A stretch of DNA of 63,406 nucleotides, the filler included. It is 7 parts of 7 records of this genome, joined end to end, with 100 filler letters (N's around TTAATTAATTAA, not from the genome) between each part and the next. Parts side by side here need not be neighbours in the genome. Positions count along the whole stretch, not along the records: positions 1 to 7,048 come from SRR31147125_27553; 6 more parts are not named here. One strand, written 5' to 3'. Within the stretch, counting starts at the first letter, position 1. The number at the start of each line of letters is the position of its first letter. Both the position numbers and the translations under genes were made by a program. Positions 1-57,461 of the stretch are shown piece by piece. Below the pieces are notes generated by a model that saw only the letters and a program-made list of their open reading frames with translations, was not told where the DNA came from and ran no database searches.

Positions 1-1
1 A

Positions 2-900
2 AAAAGGCTCGGTGCCCCCTACTTCACCTCCGCCCATTTCACCGCACCTTACGACGCTGAGCAGGTTGCAGCCGTTCTGCAGGAAAAGAAAGATCCGGTC
101 ATAGGCCTGGTGGGAACCTCAACGCTCCCCTTCCCTTTTACGAGTACCTGCAGAAGAACGTACTGGGAGCACGCTTTGTCGACGTAACTGACAAGATCGA
201 CCTGCTCAAGGCGGTCAAAAGCGAGGAGGAGATCGCGCTGATCAAGCGCGTCGCAGTGATGCAGGACGTCGCGTTCGAGCACCTGCTGAAGGTGATCAAA
301 CCAGGGATGAAAGAGTCCGAGGTATATGCAGAAGTCGTTTATTCATGCAACCTGCAGGGGAGCAGCCGGGGGCTGGTCCTAGTCAATTCCGCCCAGCCGG
401 GAACGCCAGCACCTTTCAAACCACTGCACCTGCAGAACAAGGTGATCCAGGAAGGCGACCACATCTCCCTGCTCATCGAGATGAACGGCCCCGGAGGATT
501 TTACACGGAACTCGGCCGAACCATATCCTTCGGCAAAGCCTCGCAGGAACTCCAGGACGCTTTCGGCGTCGCCGTAGAGGCCCAGACTCTGACGCTGAAC
601 AACCTGAAACCGGGAGCGATCCCCGGACAACTCTGGAACGACAACAACGAGTTCCTGACCTCCAGGGGCTACCAGGCAGAGGCCAGGCTCTACGCCCACG
701 GGCAGGGGTACGATCTCGTCGAACGCCCCCTGATCCGGCACGACGACCCGATGGTGATCGTCCCGGACATGGGCATCGTCGTGCACCCGACCGCCGCAAC
801 GGAAACCGTCTGGATCGGAGTGGTGGACAACTACATGGTGACGGAAGACGGGGTCGGCCCGTGCCTGCACCGGACCCCGAAGAAAATCTTTGAGATCTGA
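2..900 (+). CDS. M24 (Xaa-Pro peptidase/creatinase-like) family protein, 5'-truncated, with a -1 frameshift near 131-140
   Basis: Pita-bread-fold motifs (KSEEEI, ELGRT, HGQGYDLVERP, VVHP). The N-terminal part reads in frame 2 (RLGAPYFTSAHF...IGLVG) and switches to frame 1 at TTCCCTTTTA. Confidence 0.75.
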
Positions 901-907
901 TACTGCC

Positions 908-1846
908 ATGAACGTGCTCATTGTCGAAGAATTCGCCCCCTATTACAAGAAACGGATCAAAGAACGATTCCCAGATCTTGAAATCGAAACTGCGGTTGAC
1001 GAGACATCCGCGCTGCAACATATCGGGCAGGCCGAGGTCCTGCTCGCGATAAAGGCCTCAGATGAGCTGATCGGCAAAGCTGAGAACCTGAAATGGATCC
1101 AATCGCTGATCTCCGGGACGGATTTCTTCACGAGTCTTCCATCGCTGGACCAGAATGTCCTCATTACCTCGAGTCGCGGAATTCACGGTCCGCAGATGGC
1201 GGAAACCACCTGTCTGCTGATGCTTGCGCTGAACAGGCACCTGCCTGCCAATTTAAAGAACCAGGAAAAGAAAGTGTGGCAGCGCTGGCCGACTAAACTG
1301 CTCTACGGCAAAGCGGTGGGCATCCTCGGAGTGGGCACCATCGGCACGCAGTTGGCCTGCGTGTGCAAAGCATTCGGGATGGAGGTGCACGGCCTGACGA
1401 CGACGGGACGGGAAATCGACGGGGTCGACCACCCGTATGGATCGGATGGACTAAGTGAGTTGATCCCCCGGGTCGATTACCTGGTCAATATCCTCCCTGC
1501 TTTCCCCAGCACCATCGGGTTGATCGGAGCGGAGCAGTTCGCGGTGATGAAGCCGAGCGCATTTTATATCAGCGTTGGACGCGGTGACACCGTTAATGAA
1601 GATGCGCTGATCGATGCGCTACAAAACAAAACCATTGCCGGAGCCGGACTCGATGTATTTGCCGAAGAGCCGCTGCCCGCACACAGTCCACTCTGGAATA
1701 TGGACAACGTCATCGTAACGCCACACATCGGCGGAATGAGTGACATCTACCCGGACCAGGTGCTGCCCAACATCCTGGAGAATATCGCACGCTACCTGGT
1801 CGGAGAAAGAAGAGATTTGATCAACGTAATCAACTGGAAGAAGTGA
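908..1846 (+). CDS. D-2-hydroxyacid dehydrogenase (NAD-binding)
   Basis: GILGVGTIG Rossmann motif, SVGRG, AGLDVFAEEPLP, TPHIGG; ATG at 908. Confidence 0.9.
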   Translation: MNVLIVEEFAPYYKKRIKERFPDLEIETAVDETSALQHIGQAEVLLAIKASDELIGKAENLKWIQSLISGTDFFTSLPSLDQNVLITSSRGIHGPQMAETTCLLMLALNRHLPANLKNQEKKVWQRWPTKLLYGKAVGILGVGTIGTQLACVCKAFGMEVHGLTTTGREIDGVDHPYGSDGLSELIPRVDYLVNILPAFPSTIGLIGAEQFAVMKPSAFYISVGRGDTVNEDALIDALQNKTIAGAGLDVFAEEPLPAHSPLWNMDNVIVTPHIGGMSDIYPDQVLPNILENIARYLVGERRDLINVINWKK

Positions 1847-1910
1847 TCCGGATACACTGAAGTTTGTAGACCTGTCATGTTGTCGCGGCAGGTTGTCCAT
1901 CAGGGCTGGT

Positions 1911-2345
1911 AGCTACGACACCTCCATCATACCTGAATTCGACATCATGTGCCTGTCGACCAAGACGCCCTAGCAGGAGAAAGAAGACGGCGTCCTCGAT
2001 TATCTCGAAGAAATCCACAACAAGAAAGCGAACGCGCACGTACTCGGCCGGGTCGGCAGCGGCAGCTATTTCCACGTCTTCCTGATCAAGGCATCCAAGT
2101 ACATGGTCTACCCCGGCTTCTACACGCCGTCCACCTACATCCTGATCACCCTGGAGATGGGTCAAATCACCCCGCCGTTCGGCATGCTCCTCTTCGTGAT
2201 GAAGGGCGTGGTACCGGATGACATCGAATTCAAGGACATCTGCTGGGCAGCCGTCCCGTACATCGTATTCGACATCATCCTCATCGCCGCCATCCTCATC
2301 TGGCCGAGCATCGCGCTGTGGCTCCCCGCCACGGTGGGCAACTGA
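1911..2345 (+). pseudogene. Collapsed TRAP operon remnant: DctP fragments in frame with a DctM C-terminus
   Basis: Frame 3 reads IIPEFDIMCLSTKTP*QEKEDGVLDYLEEIHNKKANAHVLGR (DctP-like, TAG at 1971), then EMGQITPPFGMLLFVMKG...WPSIALWLP (DctM C-terminus). Confidence 0.7.
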
Positions 2346-2417
2346 GAGAACGGAGTTTCCGGCCCCCGCACCATGCAGGAGTGATGCTGCGGGAATGCCG
2401 GATATCGAACACAACTG

Positions 2418-3017
2418 CTACTGCATTGCTTTCAGCCCAGCAAAGTCGATCGATTCGGCGAACCCGAGCAATTCCTCCTCGTCGATTCCGTTGCCGTCGA
2501 TCGTGATGATGAACTTTTTGGCTACGTTCACCATGATCTCGCCAGAACGATTCTGCGCGTTGTACTTCACGATGGATTTGTTGCGCTTGATCTTCTTGAG
2601 TTTGCCCCCGTCAGCACCGGCGATGGCCGGGTTGAACATGTTGATGAGTCCCATGAACATCGGTGACTCACCCATGATGGTCATCGACACACGGCCTCCC
2701 TTGGACTGGTCCGCGCGGGTGTAAACCCGCTCAATCGTCGACGCGCCACCGAGCATCCCCATGCTCTGGGAGACTGCTTCGCCGGCCTGCCATCCGTCGG
2801 GAGGTTCCGGCAGGAACGCGGCCATGTTTTCACTGCTCATCTGGAGGATGAGCTGCTTCGCGTAATCGATCGCCTCCAGCGCTTCCGAATAAGCCTTGTC
2901 ATTGTAAGCATCTTCAGCTTCCTTGAGTGACTCCAGGATCTCATCCGCGATAGCCGGCGCAGCCCAGAAACTCATCACCAGCAGTACCGCCACAAACCGT
3001 GTAATTGATACCCTCAT
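2418..3017 (-). CDS. Secreted hypothetical protein
   Basis: GGGGGAG RBS before ATG 3017; signal peptide ending A-I-A; helical N-terminus. Confidence 0.7.
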   Translation of the reverse strand: MRVSITRFVAVLLVMSFWAAPAIADEILESLKEAEDAYNDKAYSEALEAIDYAKQLILQMSSENMAAFLPEPPDGWQAGEAVSQSMGMLGGASTIERVYTRADQSKGGRVSMTIMGESPMFMGLINMFNPAIAGADGGKLKKIKRNKSIVKYNAQNRSGEIMVNVAKKFIITIDGNGIDEEELLGFAESIDFAGLKAMQ

Positions 3018-3338
3018 TATTCTCCCCCTGAATAATTGTTTCCCCACCATTTTCGTGAGTAACGTAAAGAACTCTCCCCGGATACCTGTCAGTTTTGGTA
3101 TCCGGGGGACAGCCTAAAAACTACATCCAGAAGTAAGACATTTCAAGGTATAATAATTGAGACACATCGACGCGCATGCTCCGCAACGCTCATCCCGGGC
3201 TTATCATTCGTACCGTTTCATAAAATTCCTGCTGCTTAGTAAATTTACTATGTATATTAAGCGCTTCCTGGTATATCCCTGTGAGATTCATTATATGACA
3301 GGTAAGCTGAAAACCGGACATGCAGCAAAGGAGGAGGA

Positions 3339-5240
3339 ATGGGCGCGGGGCGACAGGGTACACGAATAAGAGCATGCGGAACGAGGCTTGTCCTGCTGTT
3401 GTGCGTCACCTTGTTGTTCAGTACGCCGGCACTATCGTCCAGCAGGGTAGCGCTGGTCATTGGCAACGGTGCATATAGGAGCAGCCCGCTCAACAACCCG
3501 GTCAACGACGCCACTGATATTACAAGAATCCTCGAAAGACTCGGTTTCGACGTCATCATCAGAAAGGATGCGACCAGGCGAGACATGCTGCAGGGACTCT
3601 ACTCTTTCGCCGACAAACTGAAACGGGCCGACATCGGCCTGTTCTTCTATGCCGGACACGGTGTACAGATCGACGGCATCAACTATCTTCTGCCGATCGG
3701 GGCAGACATCAGGAGTGCAATCGACGTTGAGGACGAGGGGTTAAGCGCCAACCGCATACTCGGCAAGATGGAGGAAGCCGGTAATCGCCTCAATATCGTA
3801 ATCCTCGACGCCTGCCGTGACAACCCGTTCCCTTCATCCGTTCGCTCGTCCGGGCAGGGGCTTGCCCGCATGGAGGCGCCGGTCGGGTCCCTCATCGCCT
3901 ACGCGACCTCCCCCGGCTCGGTGGCGATGGACGGCAGCGGACGTAACGGCATCTTCACCAAACACCTGCTCACGGTCCTGCCGAGAACCGATCTCACGAT
4001 TCGCGACATGTTCGATGTCGCCGGGCTGGCAGTGATGCGTGAAACGGGCAGGAAGCAAGTTCCGTGGCTGCACTCTTCGCCCATGGAGCGCGTGTATCTC
4101 GCCGGGGGCAACCCCGACGCCGTAATCAGCGATGCGGGCAGCGGTTATCAGACTGGACCTGAAACGACCACGTCCCTGAGCACCGGCAGCCCGAGTGTTG
4201 ATACTGCCGCATCGCCGCCGCTGCTGCGGCCGCACTCAAAAGTGTCTCTCAAGACTGCACAGAACAACTCTCACTCTTTGGAATCGATCAATTCCCGTTT
4301 TCCCGACGTATCGAACCTGAGGTGGAAAGCGGTATCTGTTTTTACAAAAGGCCTTTCGACCTTCCACAACGATTCACTCTCACTCCTCAAGGATGTCTCT
4401 GACATGACGGGGGGGAGGATGAAAATTAAACTGTATACCGCCGGGGAACTCGTTCCTTCCATGCAGGTATTCGATGCTGTTGCAAAGGGTACGGCACAGG
4501 TCGGGATAGCGGACCCGAAATACTGGAAAGGAAAAGACGAGGCGTTCGTACTGATCAGTTCGGTGAGCGCCTGCCTCGCGAAACCCCTGGAAGAACAGTA
4601 CCGGTGGCTGATCAGGGGAGAAGGAAGACAGACGATAGACCGCCTGTTCGACAAGTTCGGCATTGTTGCGTTTCCATTCACGCTCTATGGTCCGGAAGGT
4701 CTCTGGTCCACGAAACGGCTTGACTCCGTTCAGGACCTCAAAAAGCTGAAGATTCGAATGGTGAGCCATCAGATGGACATTTTCAACGACCTCGGCAGCA
4801 CTGCGGTTCCATTACCGGGGGGAGAACTGTACCTGGCGCTGGAGCGGGGAGTAATTGCCGCGACAGAGTTTTCGATACCGTCGATTGACGAACGATTCGG
4901 ACTGGACAAAGTAGCGGACTACTATTACTACCCTTCGATCCACCAGGCGTTTATGCCACTCTACCTGATGATCAACAAAAACGCGTGGAACAACCTTTCC
5001 ACAGAGCAACAGGAAGCAATTCGCATTGCCTGCCATAACAGCGTGGTCAAAAGCCTGGAGGAAGGCCCCGCCAGGATACAGAAAGCCCTGGACAGGCTGG
5101 AAAGCAGGGGTGTCGAGATCGGCAGCCTTCCCCGGGATATCGGGGAGGCGCACTGCGATCAAAGCCAGCGCTACTATGAGCAAATATCACGGAAATATCC
5201 TTCTTTCGATACAATGTACAGGGCTTACACCGAACAATAA
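3339..5240 (+). CDS. Exported caspase-family (peptidase C14) protein fused to a TRAP DctP-type solute-binding domain
   Basis: GGAGGAGG RBS and signal peptide; RVALVIGNGAY, FFYAGHG and ILDACRDNP dyad motifs; S/T/P-rich linker; C-terminal KYWKGK, KIRM, LPGGELYLALERGVI. Confidence 0.85.
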   Translation: MGAGRQGTRIRACGTRLVLLLCVTLLFSTPALSSSRVALVIGNGAYRSSPLNNPVNDATDITRILERLGFDVIIRKDATRRDMLQGLYSFADKLKRADIGLFFYAGHGVQIDGINYLLPIGADIRSAIDVEDEGLSANRILGKMEEAGNRLNIVILDACRDNPFPSSVRSSGQGLARMEAPVGSLIAYATSPGSVAMDGSGRNGIFTKHLLTVLPRTDLTIRDMFDVAGLAVMRETGRKQVPWLHSSPMERVYLAGGNPDAVISDAGSGYQTGPETTTSLSTGSPSVDTAASPPLLRPHSKVSLKTAQNNSHSLESINSRFPDVSNLRWKAVSVFTKGLSTFHNDSLSLLKDVSDMTGGRMKIKLYTAGELVPSMQVFDAVAKGTAQVGIADPKYWKGKDEAFVLISSVSACLAKPLEEQYRWLIRGEGRQTIDRLFDKFGIVAFPFTLYGPEGLWSTKRLDSVQDLKKLKIRMVSHQMDIFNDLGSTAVPLPGGELYLALERGVIAATEFSIPSIDERFGLDKVADYYYYPSIHQAFMPLYLMINKNAWNNLSTEQQEAIRIACHNSVVKSLEEGPARIQKALDRLESRGVEIGSLPRDIGEAHCDQSQRYYEQISRKYPSFDTMYRAYTEQ

Positions 5241-5269
5241 CGGCTCTTCTCATACCGAGGCCTCTGGCT

Positions 5270-6838
5270 CTACTTACCTGTCGAGAGCGTGCCTGTTGCC
5301 GCCCGTACCCCTGAATTTCCGGGCTGTATACGCATCCTTCTATCTGCAAAGAACGGTGCCAGTTTGTCCTGCTCCGAAGGCCTGGTGAGCAACGAAACGG
5401 CGACAAACACCGTACCTGAGAACAGCATCGAGACAATCACCCCGTGCCCCATGAGGACCGGGTGTAGACTCTCCAGGTAGGGAGAGGCCAGAGGCGCCGT
5501 TTTTACCAGATCAAGTATCACGAACCCTGTCTGGACAAAGAATCCCGTCCACAACGATGCCACCGCACCGGGCCCCGTTGCCCGTTTCCAGTAGAGCCCG
5601 CCCATAAGCACAAAAAAATAGGATGCCGAGGCGATGTAGGTCGCGATGTGGATCGCATCGATAATGGACGTGATGAAGAACGACCCCGCCGTCGCACAGG
5701 AAATGATCAGCAGGACGCTTAACCGGCTGATCACGCGCATCTGCTGCTCGCTCGCGTCCCTGTTGACGGAGCGCTGGTAGATATCCCGCGCAATACAGGA
5801 TGCACCGGATGCGGCAAACGTATCGGCGCAGGACATCGCCGCAGCCGCCAGGCACACGGCACAGAGAGCCAGACTGAAATCCGAGACCCCGTTGCTCATG
5901 ATGAAGTTCAGAAGCGCCGGTTCCGCCTGAGCCATGCCCATCGGGAACCCGGCCTTCGCAATCTCCGGATAGATGGTGTTGAGCCCCAATGCAATGAGCG
6001 CGCAACCGCCGAAGACAATGGTTACGAGCAGAGAACCGAGCTGCATTCCATGGCGTGCGGCGGTCTCGTCCCGTGCCGCCCAAACCCGCTGCCACGGATC
6101 CTGTTCGGTGACCCAGCCCGGCACGATAGCGAGAACGAAGATGAGTATCATCGGTAGGCCGATGGACGCAGGATTCCACCACCCCTCCGGCGCAGCCGTC
6201 ACGATCTGCCCCCACGAGACATCTGTTGCCGCCGTCGCCCCGCTCATCACCACAACTGCCATAACCAGGATGAATATCGACAGAAAAACGAACTGGATCA
6301 CGTCTGATGCGATAACTGCAGAGAGACCTCCCAGGGTCACGTATACAGCCACAGCGAGACCAACGATCAGCGCGGCATAGGTGGGGCTGATCCCGTAAAA
6401 CACCTGCAGGACCATCGCAAACCCTTTGATATCGGCGACGGCGAACAGGATCATCACCACGGTGATAATGATCGCCACCGGCAGCCGCAGATGTCTGCCA
6501 TACCTGATCTCCAGCAGCTCGGGCTGGGTAATCGCGGGCAGTGACTTGATCTTGCTGACCAGAAAGGAAATGACGAGAAGCGCGATGATATTGGGTGCGA
6601 CAAAGCCCCAGACCGACCCCATCCCCAGCAGCATATAGAAGCCGATGACCGCCAGCAGTCCCCCTGCCGTCAGCCAGGACGCAGCAGCAGAGAAGCCGAT
6701 GGAAAGCGCGCCAGCGGATCTCCCCGCCAGCCAGAAGTCAACCTGGGAGTGCTGTTTTCGGTTGAAATAGATCCCGGTCAGAACCAGAAATAAAAGGTAG
6801 AAAAAGAGAACAACAAGAAACAGATGATAACCCGTCAC
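5270..6838 (-). CDS. Sodium:solute symporter (SSS) family transporter
   Basis: About 13 hydrophobic segments; DFWLAGRS, YVTLGGLSAVIASD, QRVWAARD, AAAMSCAD motifs; GGAGGT RBS before GTG. Confidence 0.9.
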   Translation of the reverse strand: MTGYHLFLVVLFFYLLFLVLTGIYFNRKQHSQVDFWLAGRSAGALSIGFSAAASWLTAGGLLAVIGFYMLLGMGSVWGFVAPNIIALLVISFLVSKIKSLPAITQPELLEIRYGRHLRLPVAIIITVVMILFAVADIKGFAMVLQVFYGISPTYAALIVGLAVAVYVTLGGLSAVIASDVIQFVFLSIFILVMAVVVMSGATAATDVSWGQIVTAAPEGWWNPASIGLPMILIFVLAIVPGWVTEQDPWQRVWAARDETAARHGMQLGSLLVTIVFGGCALIALGLNTIYPEIAKAGFPMGMAQAEPALLNFIMSNGVSDFSLALCAVCLAAAAMSCADTFAASGASCIARDIYQRSVNRDASEQQMRVISRLSVLLIISCATAGSFFITSIIDAIHIATYIASASYFFVLMGGLYWKRATGPGAVASLWTGFFVQTGFVILDLVKTAPLASPYLESLHPVLMGHGVIVSMLFSGTVFVAVSLLTRPSEQDKLAPFFADRRMRIQPGNSGVRAATGTLSTGK

Positions 6839-6924
6839 GACAGATACCTCCCGGTCGGCACAGACCGCGAGCCGACAAAAAATCAGCCCGGGGATTTACC
6901 GTCTCTCCGGAAAACACCTATCTC

Positions 6925-7048
6925 TCCCCAAGATATTCTGGCTCGTGGATCGTCCTACTCACCGCGCCTTCCCATACCGTTTCGAAGAAAGCTTACGGTA
7001 CAGTGACACCTTGCGGTTTTCGTCCCCACATACAGCGGCGGGTCCGCC
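6925..7048 (-). ncRNA. Cobalamin (B12) riboswitch, 5' part cut off by the contig end
   Basis: Minus strand reads GCGGACCCGCCGCTGTA...GGGGACGA...GTCACTGT...ATGGGAAGGCGCGG...GAGCCAGAATAT, matching the conserved CCCGCxxCTGT, CACTG, GGGAAGG and B12-box elements. It lies about 90 nt upstream of the SSS start. Confidence 0.85.
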
Positions 7049-7148
7049 NNNNNNNNNNNNNNNNNNNNNNNNNNNNNNNNNNNNNNNNNNNNTTAATTAA
7101 TTAANNNNNNNNNNNNNNNNNNNNNNNNNNNNNNNNNNNNNNNNNNNN
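7049..7148. other. Artificial contig linker
   Basis: N-run with central TTAATTAATTAA (stop codons in all six frames). Confidence 0.99.
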
Positions 7149-18360: not shown

Positions 18361-18460
18361 NNNNNNNNNNNNNNNNNNNNNNNNNNNNNNNNNNNNNNNN
18401 NNNNTTAATTAATTAANNNNNNNNNNNNNNNNNNNNNNNNNNNNNNNNNNNNNNNNNNNN
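18361..18460. other. Artificial contig linker
   Basis: N-run with TTAATTAATTAA. Confidence 0.99.
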
Positions 18461-24711: not shown

Positions 24712-24811
24712 NNNNNNNNNNNNNNNNNNNNNNNNNNNNNNNNNNNNNNNNNNNNTTAATTAATTAANNNNNNNNNNNNNNNNNNNNNNNNNNNNNNNNN
24801 NNNNNNNNNNN
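24712..24811. other. Artificial contig linker
   Basis: N-run with TTAATTAATTAA. Confidence 0.99.
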
Positions 24812-30639: not shown

Positions 30640-30739
30640 NNNNNNNNNNNNNNNNNNNNNNNNNNNNNNNNNNNNNNNNNNNNTTAATTAATTAANNNNN
30701 NNNNNNNNNNNNNNNNNNNNNNNNNNNNNNNNNNNNNNN
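30640..30739. other. Artificial contig linker
   Basis: N-run with TTAATTAATTAA. Confidence 0.99.
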
Positions 30740-46255: not shown

Positions 46256-47410
46256 TTAGTACTGCTTGCCGGCGATGTAATCATCGATCGGCCATGGCTC
46301 AACGCCACTGCGCTGCTCACGCCAGGTTGCGAAGTCTTTCTTGAACTGCTCTTGAGAATCGAGAGCTTTCTTGACGTCCGGATGCTTGGCTTTGACGCGC
46401 TCGAGGTAGTCTTTGGTCTTTGCGGCAAAAGCACTGCGGGTTTCTTTGTCCATGGTGACAAATTCAATTTTTTCTTTGAACTTGTTGATCGCCTGAACGT
46501 TCAGGTTCTCGATCCAGGAGTTGGACCATGCCTGAGTTTCGCGAGCGGCAATTTCAACAATCCACTTCAGGTCAGCAGGAAGCTCGTTCCATGCGTCCTT
46601 GTTGAAGAACAGACCACACTGGATGCCTGGCTGGTGAACACCCGGCTCGATGACGTACTTGGTGATTTCGTCAAAACCCATCGGGTAGTTGATGGCAGGT
46701 GAAGAGAACTCAGCCGCATCGATAACGCCACGCTCGAGAGCGAGATAAACTTCGCCGCCCGGCAGTGGAGTAACAGAAGCGCCCAGCTCATTCATGATGT
46801 CCATGAACCAGCCCGGAGTCCGCAGGCGCATGCCTTTGAAGTCTTCCATCTTGGATGCTTTTTTGTTGGAGAAGAGGCCCATCTCCTGACCACCCTGGCC
46901 ACCAGGGAGGACGTGGAGGTTGTAACGGCCATAGAGTTCCTGCATCTGCTCGAGACCGCCACGCTCATAAAGCCAGATGTTGTAACCTTCTGCATCGAGT
47001 CCGAATGGAACAGAAGCGAATGCAACGAAAGCTTCGTTCTTGCCTTTCCAGTAACCAGGCCAGTCGTGACCTACCTGAGCGGAGCCCTTGCTGACAGCAT
47101 CGAAAGATTCCATGGCGCCAACAAGCTCACCAGCGGAGAAGACTTTGATATCGAGACGGCCGCCTGAGGCGAGCTTGACAGAGTCAGCAAAGTGCTGAGC
47201 CATATCGAAGAAGAGCAGACCTTTGGACCATGGCATGACCATTTTCCAGCGGATCTTCTCATCAGATGTCTTGATTTTACGGAGTTCTTTCTTGACGGCT
47301 TCGTGACGCTGGTCTGTCCCGAATTTCTCTCTCTTGGCGGCAAATGCGTTCGGTGCAAGTGCCAGGGTCAGGATCAGAACCAGACCGATGAACAACTTCA
47401 GCTTTTTCAT
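46256..47410 (-). CDS. dctP: TRAP solute-binding protein (monocarboxylate/TakP-like)
   Basis: YWKGKN, VPFG, RLRTPG and LPGGEVYLALERGVIDAAEF. Confidence 0.93.
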   Translation of the reverse strand: MKKLKLFIGLVLILTLALAPNAFAAKREKFGTDQRHEAVKKELRKIKTSDEKIRWKMVMPWSKGLLFFDMAQHFADSVKLASGGRLDIKVFSAGELVGAMESFDAVSKGSAQVGHDWPGYWKGKNEAFVAFASVPFGLDAEGYNIWLYERGGLEQMQELYGRYNLHVLPGGQGGQEMGLFSNKKASKMEDFKGMRLRTPGWFMDIMNELGASVTPLPGGEVYLALERGVIDAAEFSSPAINYPMGFDEITKYVIEPGVHQPGIQCGLFFNKDAWNELPADLKWIVEIAARETQAWSNSWIENLNVQAINKFKEKIEFVTMDKETRSAFAAKTKDYLERVKAKHPDVKKALDSQEQFKKDFATWREQRSGVEPWPIDDYIAGKQY

Positions 47411-48399: not shown

Positions 48400-48499
48400 N
48401 NNNNNNNNNNNNNNNNNNNNNNNNNNNNNNNNNNNNNNNNNNNTTAATTAATTAANNNNNNNNNNNNNNNNNNNNNNNNNNNNNNNNNNNNNNNNNNNN
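48400..48499. other. Artificial contig linker
   Basis: N-run with TTAATTAATTAA. Confidence 0.99.
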
Positions 48500-57361: not shown

Positions 57362-57461
57362 NNNNNNNNNNNNNNNNNNNNNNNNNNNNNNNNNNNNNNN
57401 NNNNNTTAATTAATTAANNNNNNNNNNNNNNNNNNNNNNNNNNNNNNNNNNNNNNNNNNNN
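57362..57461. other. Artificial contig linker
   Basis: N-run with TTAATTAATTAA. Confidence 0.99.

Follow-up and report, generated by a model that had tools for sequence, protein, structure and literature searches.

The protein described here extends two known themes: caspase homologues of bacteria that carry accessory domains for binding, and substrate-binding protein (SBP) folds that are reused outside transport. Its gene, P0001, is at positions 3339-5240 on the plus strand of a 63,406-nucleotide stretch of DNA (the window), and encodes a protein in which a peptidase domain of the caspase family C14 is followed by a DctP domain, the receptor domain of transporters of the tripartite ATP-independent periplasmic (TRAP) type. 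Taken as a whole, our results are best explained by an exported two-module envelope protein in which the ligand-binding tail serves the protease, a reading to which we give a probability of about one half. The activators and substrates of bacterial caspase homologues are largely unsettled, and most of the accessory domains hint at no signal. Ligand control of envelope proteins is familiar from other systems: DegS-type periplasmic proteases are switched on when a ligand binds to a PDZ domain, and BvgS is a sensor with SBP or Venus flytrap domains.

On the protease side, orthocaspases cleave after Arg or Lys (PMC6426788, in excerpt), and orthocaspase heads are present on variable proteins of diversity-generating retroelements (PMC7517822). 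The only printed trace that we found of a caspase combined with an SBP is a row in a 2012 supplement, in which YP_004811164.1 of Streptomyces violaceusniger is given as Bac_PepC14, a transmembrane helix and SBP_bac_5 (Asplund-Samuelsson et al., PMC3501461, in excerpt). The excerpted main text of that paper has 0 occurrences of 'SBP', 'solute', 'DctP' or 'periplasm', and YP_004811164.1 appears only in the table. These four words and 'TctC' are absent from the excerpted main text of a caspase survey (PMC4933709), and 'protease', 'peptidase' and 'caspase' are absent from that of a review by the Krell group on SBPs in signalling (PMC8050422). A full-text search, which did not extend to subscription journals, found no paper describing a caspase fused to DctP or to another receptor of TRAP, tripartite tricarboxylate (TTT) or ATP-binding cassette (ABC) transporters, in agreement with the initial annotation of this DNA, to which the architecture was not known as characterised. 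The combination of C14 and DctP is surely visible in InterPro. Annotation pipelines name such fusions 'TRAP transporter substrate-binding protein', a name that gives no sign of the protease and is probably wrong about the function.

On the receptor side, the best comparison is TakP of Rhodobacter sphaeroides. Its sodium-pyruvate site is made of Tyr100, Gln156, Arg177, Glu214, Trp215 (through the main-chain carbonyl) and Glu240, and Arg177 forms a salt bridge with the carboxylate of pyruvate. A long C-terminal helix, common to homologues, is swapped between subunits and dimerises the protein (all from PMC1839085, in excerpt).

Results

P0001 has the layout of an exported protease on a tether to a receptor domain. 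The elements of the gene are given below; A2 is the alignment of the 22 fusion proteins of the family, and pLDDT is the predicted local distance difference test score of AlphaFold2.

3339..5240, plus strand: fusion gene P0001, 633 aa, ATG start (from the list of open reading frames (ORFs) with translation, and Pfam)
3339..3437, plus strand: signal-peptide-like N-terminus, residues 1-33, with a basic n-region, a hydrophobic core and an ALS/SS end
3444..4091, plus strand: Peptidase_C14 domain, residues 36-251 (Pfam E 3.4e-38; pLDDT mostly > 90)
3657..3659, plus strand: codon of catalytic His107 (YAGHG, motif from residue 104), aligned with the His of MALT1 and present in 22/22 sequences of A2
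3813..3815, plus strand: codon of catalytic Cys159 (LDACR, motif from residue 156), aligned with the Cys of MALT1 and present in 21/22 sequences of A2
4107..4307, plus strand: disordered linker rich in S, T and P, residues 257-323 (pLDDT below 50)
4311..5237, plus strand: TakP-type DctP domain, residues 325-633, lacking both its own signal peptide and the swapped helix at the C-terminus
4755..4757, plus strand: codon of Arg473 (KIRM, motif from residue 471), the equivalent of TakP Arg177 in the alignment to 2hzk

The N-terminus of P0001 looks like a Sec signal peptide, as judged from hydropathy and by eye. Residues 12-32 are the only strongly hydrophobic 15-residue window of the protein (Kyte-Doolittle value of at least 2.0), AlphaFold2 places a helix at residues 10-26, and the sole hydrophobic window is also at the N-terminus in 20 of the 22 family members. 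None of the 22 fusion proteins (0/22) has an internal hydrophobic segment or a second signal peptide. P0001 has no transmembrane segment after the N-terminal signal, and its only domain besides DctP is the C14 peptidase.

The two domains are joined by a disordered linker. S, T and P account for 38% of residues 253-324, and the linker is without a hydrophobic segment. The AlphaFold2 run on P0001, done with the 22-sequence family alignment, gave two confident domains (most blocks > 90 pLDDT) on a disordered tether, with an overall predicted TM score (pTM) of 0.52. The reading frame from 3339 to 5240 is intact. The initial annotation had drawn the gene with exactly these ends, and the elements that it named were all recovered where it had put them: a signal peptide, an intact His-Cys dyad, a linker of ~70 residues rich in S, T and P, the Arg of KIRM, and a complete DctP domain. 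The C14 and DctP domains are both complete, with Pfam matches that cover nearly the whole profile.

We infer that the head is an active-looking C14 cysteine protease of the paracaspase/orthocaspase type. It matches PF00656 with 132.1 bits (cut-off 21.4) over positions 2-231 of the 233 in the profile, and among solved structures its best relative is the MALT1 paracaspase domain (phmmer, E 4.7e-17), followed by the Geobacter caspase-like protein 3bij. The one sequence of A2 without the catalytic Cys is P0182, which has Ala at this position. Three acidic residues, Asp57, Asp157 and Asp198, are invariant in A2 and align with D365, D462 and E500 of MALT1 (positions assigned by offset from the chain numbering), which we take to be the acidic S1 pocket that selects Arg. 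Acidic residues at these positions predict cleavage after Arg or Lys, and the head is probably specific for these two residues.

By profile, fold, Arg and pocket, the tail is a DctP/TakP-like domain. Pfam DctP (PF03480) matches residues 339-616 with E 1.3e-40 and 140 bits (cut-off 23.4), over positions 8-282 of the 286 in the profile, and the NCBIfam model TRAP_S1 matches the tail with 72.8 bits (cut-off 50). The closest solved structures are PDB 7ug8 (E 1.7e-46) and TakP, 2hzk (E 1.3e-40); in Foldseek comparisons the tail superposes on both with a TM score of 0.87-0.88, normalised to the target, at 29-31% identity. The protein in 7ug8 is a 2-oxo-acid receptor of Synechococcus that was crystallised with alpha-ketovalerate and calcium. 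Arg473 is kept in 21 of the 22 sequences of A2 and in all 61 canonical relatives (61/61), and the TakP site Y100/Q156/R177/E214/W215/E240 corresponds to Y395/E453/R473/E510/F511/Q536 in P0001. The canonical DctP encoded elsewhere in the window and 32 of the 61 canonical relatives have the same six residues, Y/E/R/E/F/Q, as their signature. The pocket of P0001 is thus the one seen in working receptors of transporters in the sister clade, and the ligand of the tail is most likely a cation-coupled monocarboxylate, either a 2-oxo or a 2-hydroxy acid. Different members of the fusion family probably bind different acids.

The canonical DctP of the window (46256-47410) is a member of the same subfamily and not a close copy of the fused domain. 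It is on the minus strand, in a dctPQM operon, on a different contig from P0001, and is therefore uninformative on adjacency. The two domains are 36% identical (111/305, BLASTP), which indicates a shared subfamily and not a recent duplication. The initial annotation had described a close parallel between them. The pairs of motifs that it quoted do lie in the BLASTP alignment, and the six-residue pocket is the same, but the closeness was overstated for two sequences at this level of identity and on separate contigs.

The fused domain lacks three features of a TRAP P subunit: a signal peptide of its own, adjacent genes for the Q and M subunits, and the C-terminal helix. The tail starts at the mature N-terminus of its canonical relatives, directly after the hydrophilic linker. 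We searched for dctQ and dctM beside the fusion gene using Pfam on long ORFs and tblastn with the window's own DctQ and DctM, and found neither at any of three loci (0/3: the contig in the window, L176 of 15.8 kb and L181 of 11 kb), with no DctQ or DctM match below E=2 in L176 and L181. The earlier statement that no intact dctQM is adjacent stands for the ~7-8 kb contig of P0001, with the qualification that a C-terminal remnant of DctM is present ~1 kb upstream. The residues that follow the anchor Phe623 number 10 in P0001, with a median of 12 in 21 fusions versus 39 in 61 canonical relatives, and the tail is shorter than TakP by ~27 C-terminal residues.

The fused DctP domains are also divergent. 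Their end branches have 1-3 changes per column, versus a whole-tree median of 0.17. The closest standalone DctP among 5.8 billion proteins has at most 42% identity to the tail, and at most 40% over at least 95% of the query; the tail of another fusion protein, P0002, is 47% identical to that of P0001. We lean toward the view that the fused DctP is a binding tail that is independent of transport. The suggestion of the initial annotation that a binding protein has been repurposed away from transport is well supported by the missing signal peptide, the truncated helix, the long branches, the absence of dctQM at the three loci (3/3), and the exchange of heads and tails described below.

Heads and tails of the fusion proteins have been exchanged, as the heads do not form one clade while the tails of P0001 and P0002 are sisters. 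The head of P0001 is 62-64% identical to the heads of caspase-PEGA(-FGE-sulfatase) proteins. In the head tree it groups with five such proteins, with a support of 98 in the Shimodaira-Hasegawa-like approximate likelihood ratio test (SH-aLRT), and P0002 falls outside this group. In the tail tree, P0001 is sister to P0002 with a support of 99-100. The approximately unbiased (AU) test rejected a single clade of the 22 fusion heads (p 8.3e-6) and accepted a single clade of 21 tails as possible (p 0.48), meaning that a single origin of the fusion is allowed by the tail tree and rejected by the head tree. The tail tree left out P0151, which has a partial tail, and 20 of 80 metagenome loci with a short or weak match; the trees are biased because the canonical SBPs were sampled by their likeness to P0001. 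Most simply, this can be read as the passing of one specialised lineage of tethered DctP domains between caspase heads, or as a swapping of heads by recombination among the many paralogues.

The wider family follows a plan of an exported caspase head, an optional spacer (PEGA or SH3_3) and an exchangeable C-terminal binding module, which can be the lectin-like FGE-sulfatase domain, PG_binding_1, SBP_bac_3 or DctP. P0001 has no spacer. For PEGA the cut-off is 20.8 bits; P0015 has this spacer with 24.4 bits, P0002 falls narrowly short with 20.5 bits, and SH3_3 is present in P0024 and P0027. By hand count, FGE-sulfatase is in 42 of 120 proteins among the matches listed, and PG_binding_1, PDZ, SH3_3 and PEGA are also found on the same caspase heads. 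SBP_bac_3 tails, in the same N-to-C order, were present in all four proteins checked (4/4). The nearest cluster in the ESM Atlas, 'Caspase/TctC' (61 members, score 0.81), is an unconfirmed lead: a TctC tail was in 0 of 10 further caspase-region ORFs from four genomes, 9 of which carry a caspase domain.

Exported-type caspases can be numerous in one genome. In a Desulfobacterales genome (G005), P0001 has 10 distinct matches in its caspase range, in frames of 281-789 aa and with 47-53% identity, and this genome so has a large paralogous family of such proteins.

The fusion is genuine, and the family is rare but recurrent. Run X1, the probable source run, contains an 8046-base Logan contig that covers positions 1800-5600 of the window with 0 differences and a flat depth of 11.8; it was made by a second assembler, probably from the same reads. 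Runs X2 and X3 gave only motif matches of 30-50 bases from other organisms, and no second sample of the P0001 gene, and a look for RNA runs with the gene found none. The DctP part is without the signal peptide that a separate exported gene would need, which speaks against a read-through of two genes. Domain scans of relatives found independent occurrences of Peptidase_C14 with DctP, with the architecture in 21 protein clusters besides that of P0001. Together with the identical sequence from the second assembler and the two genomes described next, this speaks against the single-assembly chimera that the initial annotation had considered.

Members of the family were found in both protein collections and genomes. 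PF00656 and PF03480 occur together in 7 of 120 proteins among the matches listed. Both domains are in 16 of 52 scanned representatives (clustered at 50% identity), the 52 being those of 150 listed matches that had at least two matched stretches or one long one. The cluster of P0015 has 8 members and that of P0033 has 7, on contigs of up to 54 kb. The exact sequence of P0001 is absent from a 15-billion-protein collection. Searching 1236 genomes with the family profile A2, and scoring the top 3 candidates per genome in the large searches, we found the full-length fusion in 2 genomes of one alphaproteobacterial order. One (G571) encodes a 739-aa C14-SH3_3-DctP protein and the other (G1231) encodes P0024, of 732 aa and the same form; the two genes are syntenic, behind ROK and dinB-like genes. 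By group, a match spanning both domains was found in 1 of 401 Alphaproteobacteria and in 2 of the 23 genomes searched in G571's order; there was none in 401 Desulfobacterota, in 401 genomes from another proteobacterial order (that of G406) or in 5 further genomes.

Searches with only one of the two domains returned few fusions. Using the caspase motifs of another alignment, A1, on genome contigs, we found 79 loci and no fusion (0/79); in one of these loci, L044, an unrelated match resembling DctP lies at a distance of 7 kb on the opposite strand. Using an alignment of the tails of P0001 and P0002 (A3) on metagenome contigs, we found 80 canonical DctP loci with a caspase match in none (0/80). 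The best-looking of these, L145, proved to encode a canonical SBP that is close to the DctP of the window itself. A tail query restricted to longer proteins found only P0002.

Two side observations concern the loci recovered in these searches. In G1231, a gene resembling signal transduction ATPases with numerous domains (STAND-like), at 3619-7080 (+) of L181, is between the dinB-like gene and the fusion gene, with an end that overlaps the fusion's long open frame. Its 1153-aa product is arranged as SAM, adenylate/guanylate cyclase, AAA_16 and TPR, and the gene is absent at the syntenic site in G571. Separately, DctP-range matches at G137:C130:1467-2420 and G175:C12:141281-142303 are in frames of 488 and 478 aa. 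These frames exceed canonical SBPs by ~100 aa, have no match in the caspase range, and may represent further cases of TakP-like receptors extended at the N-terminus.

The remaining features of the contig are a possible ribosome binding site, the remnant of a TRAP gene, and the boundary of the contig itself.

3330..3337, plus strand: Shine-Dalgarno-like GGAGGAGG, read from the sequence, 1-4 nt from the ATG, a short spacing
2103..2345, plus strand: C-terminal remnant of DctM, an 80-aa ORF (Pfam DctM profile positions 357-412 of 413, E 2.4e-08)
7049..7148, no strand: artificial spacer N44-TTAATTAATTAA-N44, marking the end of the contig that bears the P0001 gene

The window is made of 7 pieces separated by such spacers (at 7049-7148, 18361-18460, 24712-24811, 30640-30739, 48400-48499 and 57362-57461), and the contig of P0001 is positions 1-7048. 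Because the spacers split the window into separate contigs, features across a spacer cannot be called neighbours. A promoter scan found no sigma-70-like site upstream of the P0001 gene, and the scan for promoters and terminators near the gene found nothing above the expectation from shuffled sequence.

The DctM sequence upstream of P0001 is not a gene but what is left of a TRAP locus that was lost or rearranged. It is the sole sequence of a TRAP membrane component on the contig, directly after a complete 2-hydroxyacid dehydrogenase gene (890-1846), and the rest of dctM is missing; with the window's DctM as the tblastn query, only residues 375-440 of the query match the contig, at 32% identity.

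Other genes of the contig gave no indication of a partner. A complete catalytic domain of an M24 peptidase is encoded at 256-900 (+), preceded in another phase by an open frame at 2-187 (+) that runs off the start of the window and whose 61-aa piece has no Pfam match; the M24 gene may be frameshifted or may contain a sequencing error. At 2418-3050 (-), divergent from the fusion gene, is a gene for a 210-aa protein that has a signal-like N-terminus and no match in Pfam or NCBIfam. These neighbours of the fusion gene (the 210-aa exported protein, an SSF transporter and the 2-hydroxyacid dehydrogenase) were found in 0 of 174 fetched loci, and we therefore claim no conserved partner.

Discussion

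We propose that P0001 works as a protease with a receptor attached. In this proposal the protein would be exported by Sec to the cell envelope, where the C14 head would cut after Arg or Lys. The DctP tail, on its disordered tether of ~65 residues, would bind a small 2-oxo or 2-hydroxy acid, and the Venus flytrap closure of the tail on its ligand would decide when, or on what, the head cuts. In its strict form, with allosteric or oligomeric gating of proteolysis by the ligand, the proposal is tentative, and we think this form less probable than not by a good way. More doubtful still is the extension to a general class of metabolite-triggered envelope proteases, made of exported caspase heads with interchangeable receptor tails. 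Such a class, if it exists, would include the DctP and SBP_bac_3 tails, SBP_bac_5 (one supplement entry) and TctC (the Atlas lead only). It would be what ligand-activated caspases are elsewhere, in a bacterial version, with P0001 as the first member whose trigger can be guessed.

Several observations weigh against a tail that serves the protease by binding a ligand. AlphaFold2 shows no fixed contact between head and tail and no confident mutual arrangement (pTM 0.52), so there is no structural hint of allostery. The swapped helix is missing, which removes the known route of dimerisation in this subfamily and weakens the idea that dimerisation is involved. Beyond the pair P0001 and P0002, only the Arg is kept (21/22) and the cation-binding residues of the pocket vary, and the class of ligand therefore cannot be generalised to the family. 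The context comes from three loci, two of them related, and because the contigs are short (7-16 kb) partner Q and M genes elsewhere in the genome are conceivable. Some gene decay at the locus is possible, given the DctM remnant and the possibly frameshifted M24 gene. Finally, most of the other tails in the caspase clade bind polymers (PG_binding_1, SH3_3 and lectin-like domains), and for that reason targeting fits at least as well as gating.

Targeting is the first alternative to weigh. The DctP tail would anchor or aim a constitutively active protease, and the small molecule would have no regulatory role; the tail might bind a carboxylate-bearing polymer of the envelope, or the C-terminus of a protein or peptide, much as sister proteins presumably do with their PG_binding_1, SH3_3 and lectin-like tails. 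Polymer-binding tails are present in the same clade of caspases, with FGE-sulfatase domains in 42 of 120 among the matches listed, and heads and tails that are exchanged like cassettes, with no predicted contact between them, are also consistent with it. P0001, however, keeps the full pocket signature for a small molecule and a cation, and the closed-cleft fold of 2-oxo-acid receptors, and we know of no DctP-type cleft that accepts polymers. We regard targeting alone as unlikely.

A second alternative is that the tail is a working TRAP subunit that delivers its ligand to a distant DctQM, with the caspase as an add-on for turnover or processing. Orphan SBPs that use distant transporters exist, the pocket of P0001 is intact, and TRAP_S1 scores above its cut-off; the Joint Genome Institute (JGI) names relatives TRAP substrate-binding proteins, and the DctM remnant is 1 kb upstream. 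Against this, dctQ and dctM are absent from 3 of 3 loci, the C-terminal helix is lost in most fusions, and the branches are several-fold longer than those of canonical SBPs. We would also expect a head of 250 residues on a tether of 65 residues to be an unprecedented load for an SBP that has to dock. These points make transport by P0001 distinctly improbable.

Self-processing would give the fusion a different meaning, as a device for maturation or secretion: the head would cut basic sites in the linker (Arg or Lys, residues 300-330) and free a DctP-like protein. Orthocaspases and metacaspases do process themselves after basic residues (PMC6426788, in excerpt), and the linker of P0001 is disordered and contains Arg and Lys. 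The linker sequences are not conserved, however, and relatives have a folded PEGA or SH3_3 domain instead; moreover, the freed domain would still be without partner Q and M subunits and without the dimerisation helix. We consider a self-processing precursor very unlikely.

An artefact, whether a chimera of assembly or a read-through of two genes by sequencing error, is almost certainly not the explanation: the contig is short, of metagenome type, at ~12x depth and with other signs of decay, and the 15-billion-protein collection does not contain the exact sequence of P0001, but another assembler gives the same sequence, the DctP part has no signal peptide, and 21 further clusters and two genomes show the architecture.

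Comparison with known systems

P0001 matters for both fields from which its domains come. Its accessory domain is a receptor that matches solved 2-oxo-acid receptors in fold and in six pocket residues, which makes the likely trigger guessable and the question of coupling testable at the bench. For the transporter field, it offers a clear example of a DctP domain of the TRAP type without Q and M subunits, fused to an enzyme, and with the dimerisation helix of its subfamily lost.

Systems that resemble P0001 only in mode of action are the most distant. DegS and BvgS are analogies, the first for an envelope protease switched by a ligand and the second for SBP folds as sensors; neither is homologous to P0001, since the DegS protease is a serine and not a cysteine protease and the output of BvgS is a kinase and not a protease. 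With SBP-domain sensors in general, P0001 shares an SBP that is covalently joined to an output domain, in a single ORF with one N-terminal signal. Unlike in those sensors, the output is a C14 peptidase and not a kinase, a cyclase or a chemoreceptor-like transmitter that reaches the cytoplasm.

The separate relatives of the tail and head are closer. TakP (Rhodobacter sphaeroides, 2hzk/2hzl) and the protein in 7ug8 share the fold of the tail, and P0001 keeps or conservatively replaces the Arg, the Tyr and the acidic cation ligands. It differs from both in being tethered behind a protease, without its own signal peptide, the swapped helix or a nearby dctQM. MALT1 and the bacterial orthocaspases (MaOC1) belong to the same fold family as the head, with the dyad in YAGHG and LDxCR contexts, and three acidic residues of the head align with S1 positions of MALT1. 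Unlike these proteins, P0001 appears to be exported and not cytoplasmic; it is without death, Ig or NACHT-type partners and has a transporter-type tail.

The nearest systems are those in which a caspase is already combined with a binding module. YP_004811164.1 of S. violaceusniger is, like P0001, a caspase homologue with intact Cys and His that is joined to a transporter-type solute-binding domain. The solute-binding domain is of another family, however, and a membrane helix is predicted to separate an intracellular head from an extracellular SBP. The caspase-PEGA-FGE-sulfatase proteins of Desulfobacterota have the heads closest to that of P0001 and the same layout of signal, head, spacer and binding module, and P0001 differs from them in its terminal module, which is a small-molecule receptor and not a lectin-like fold.

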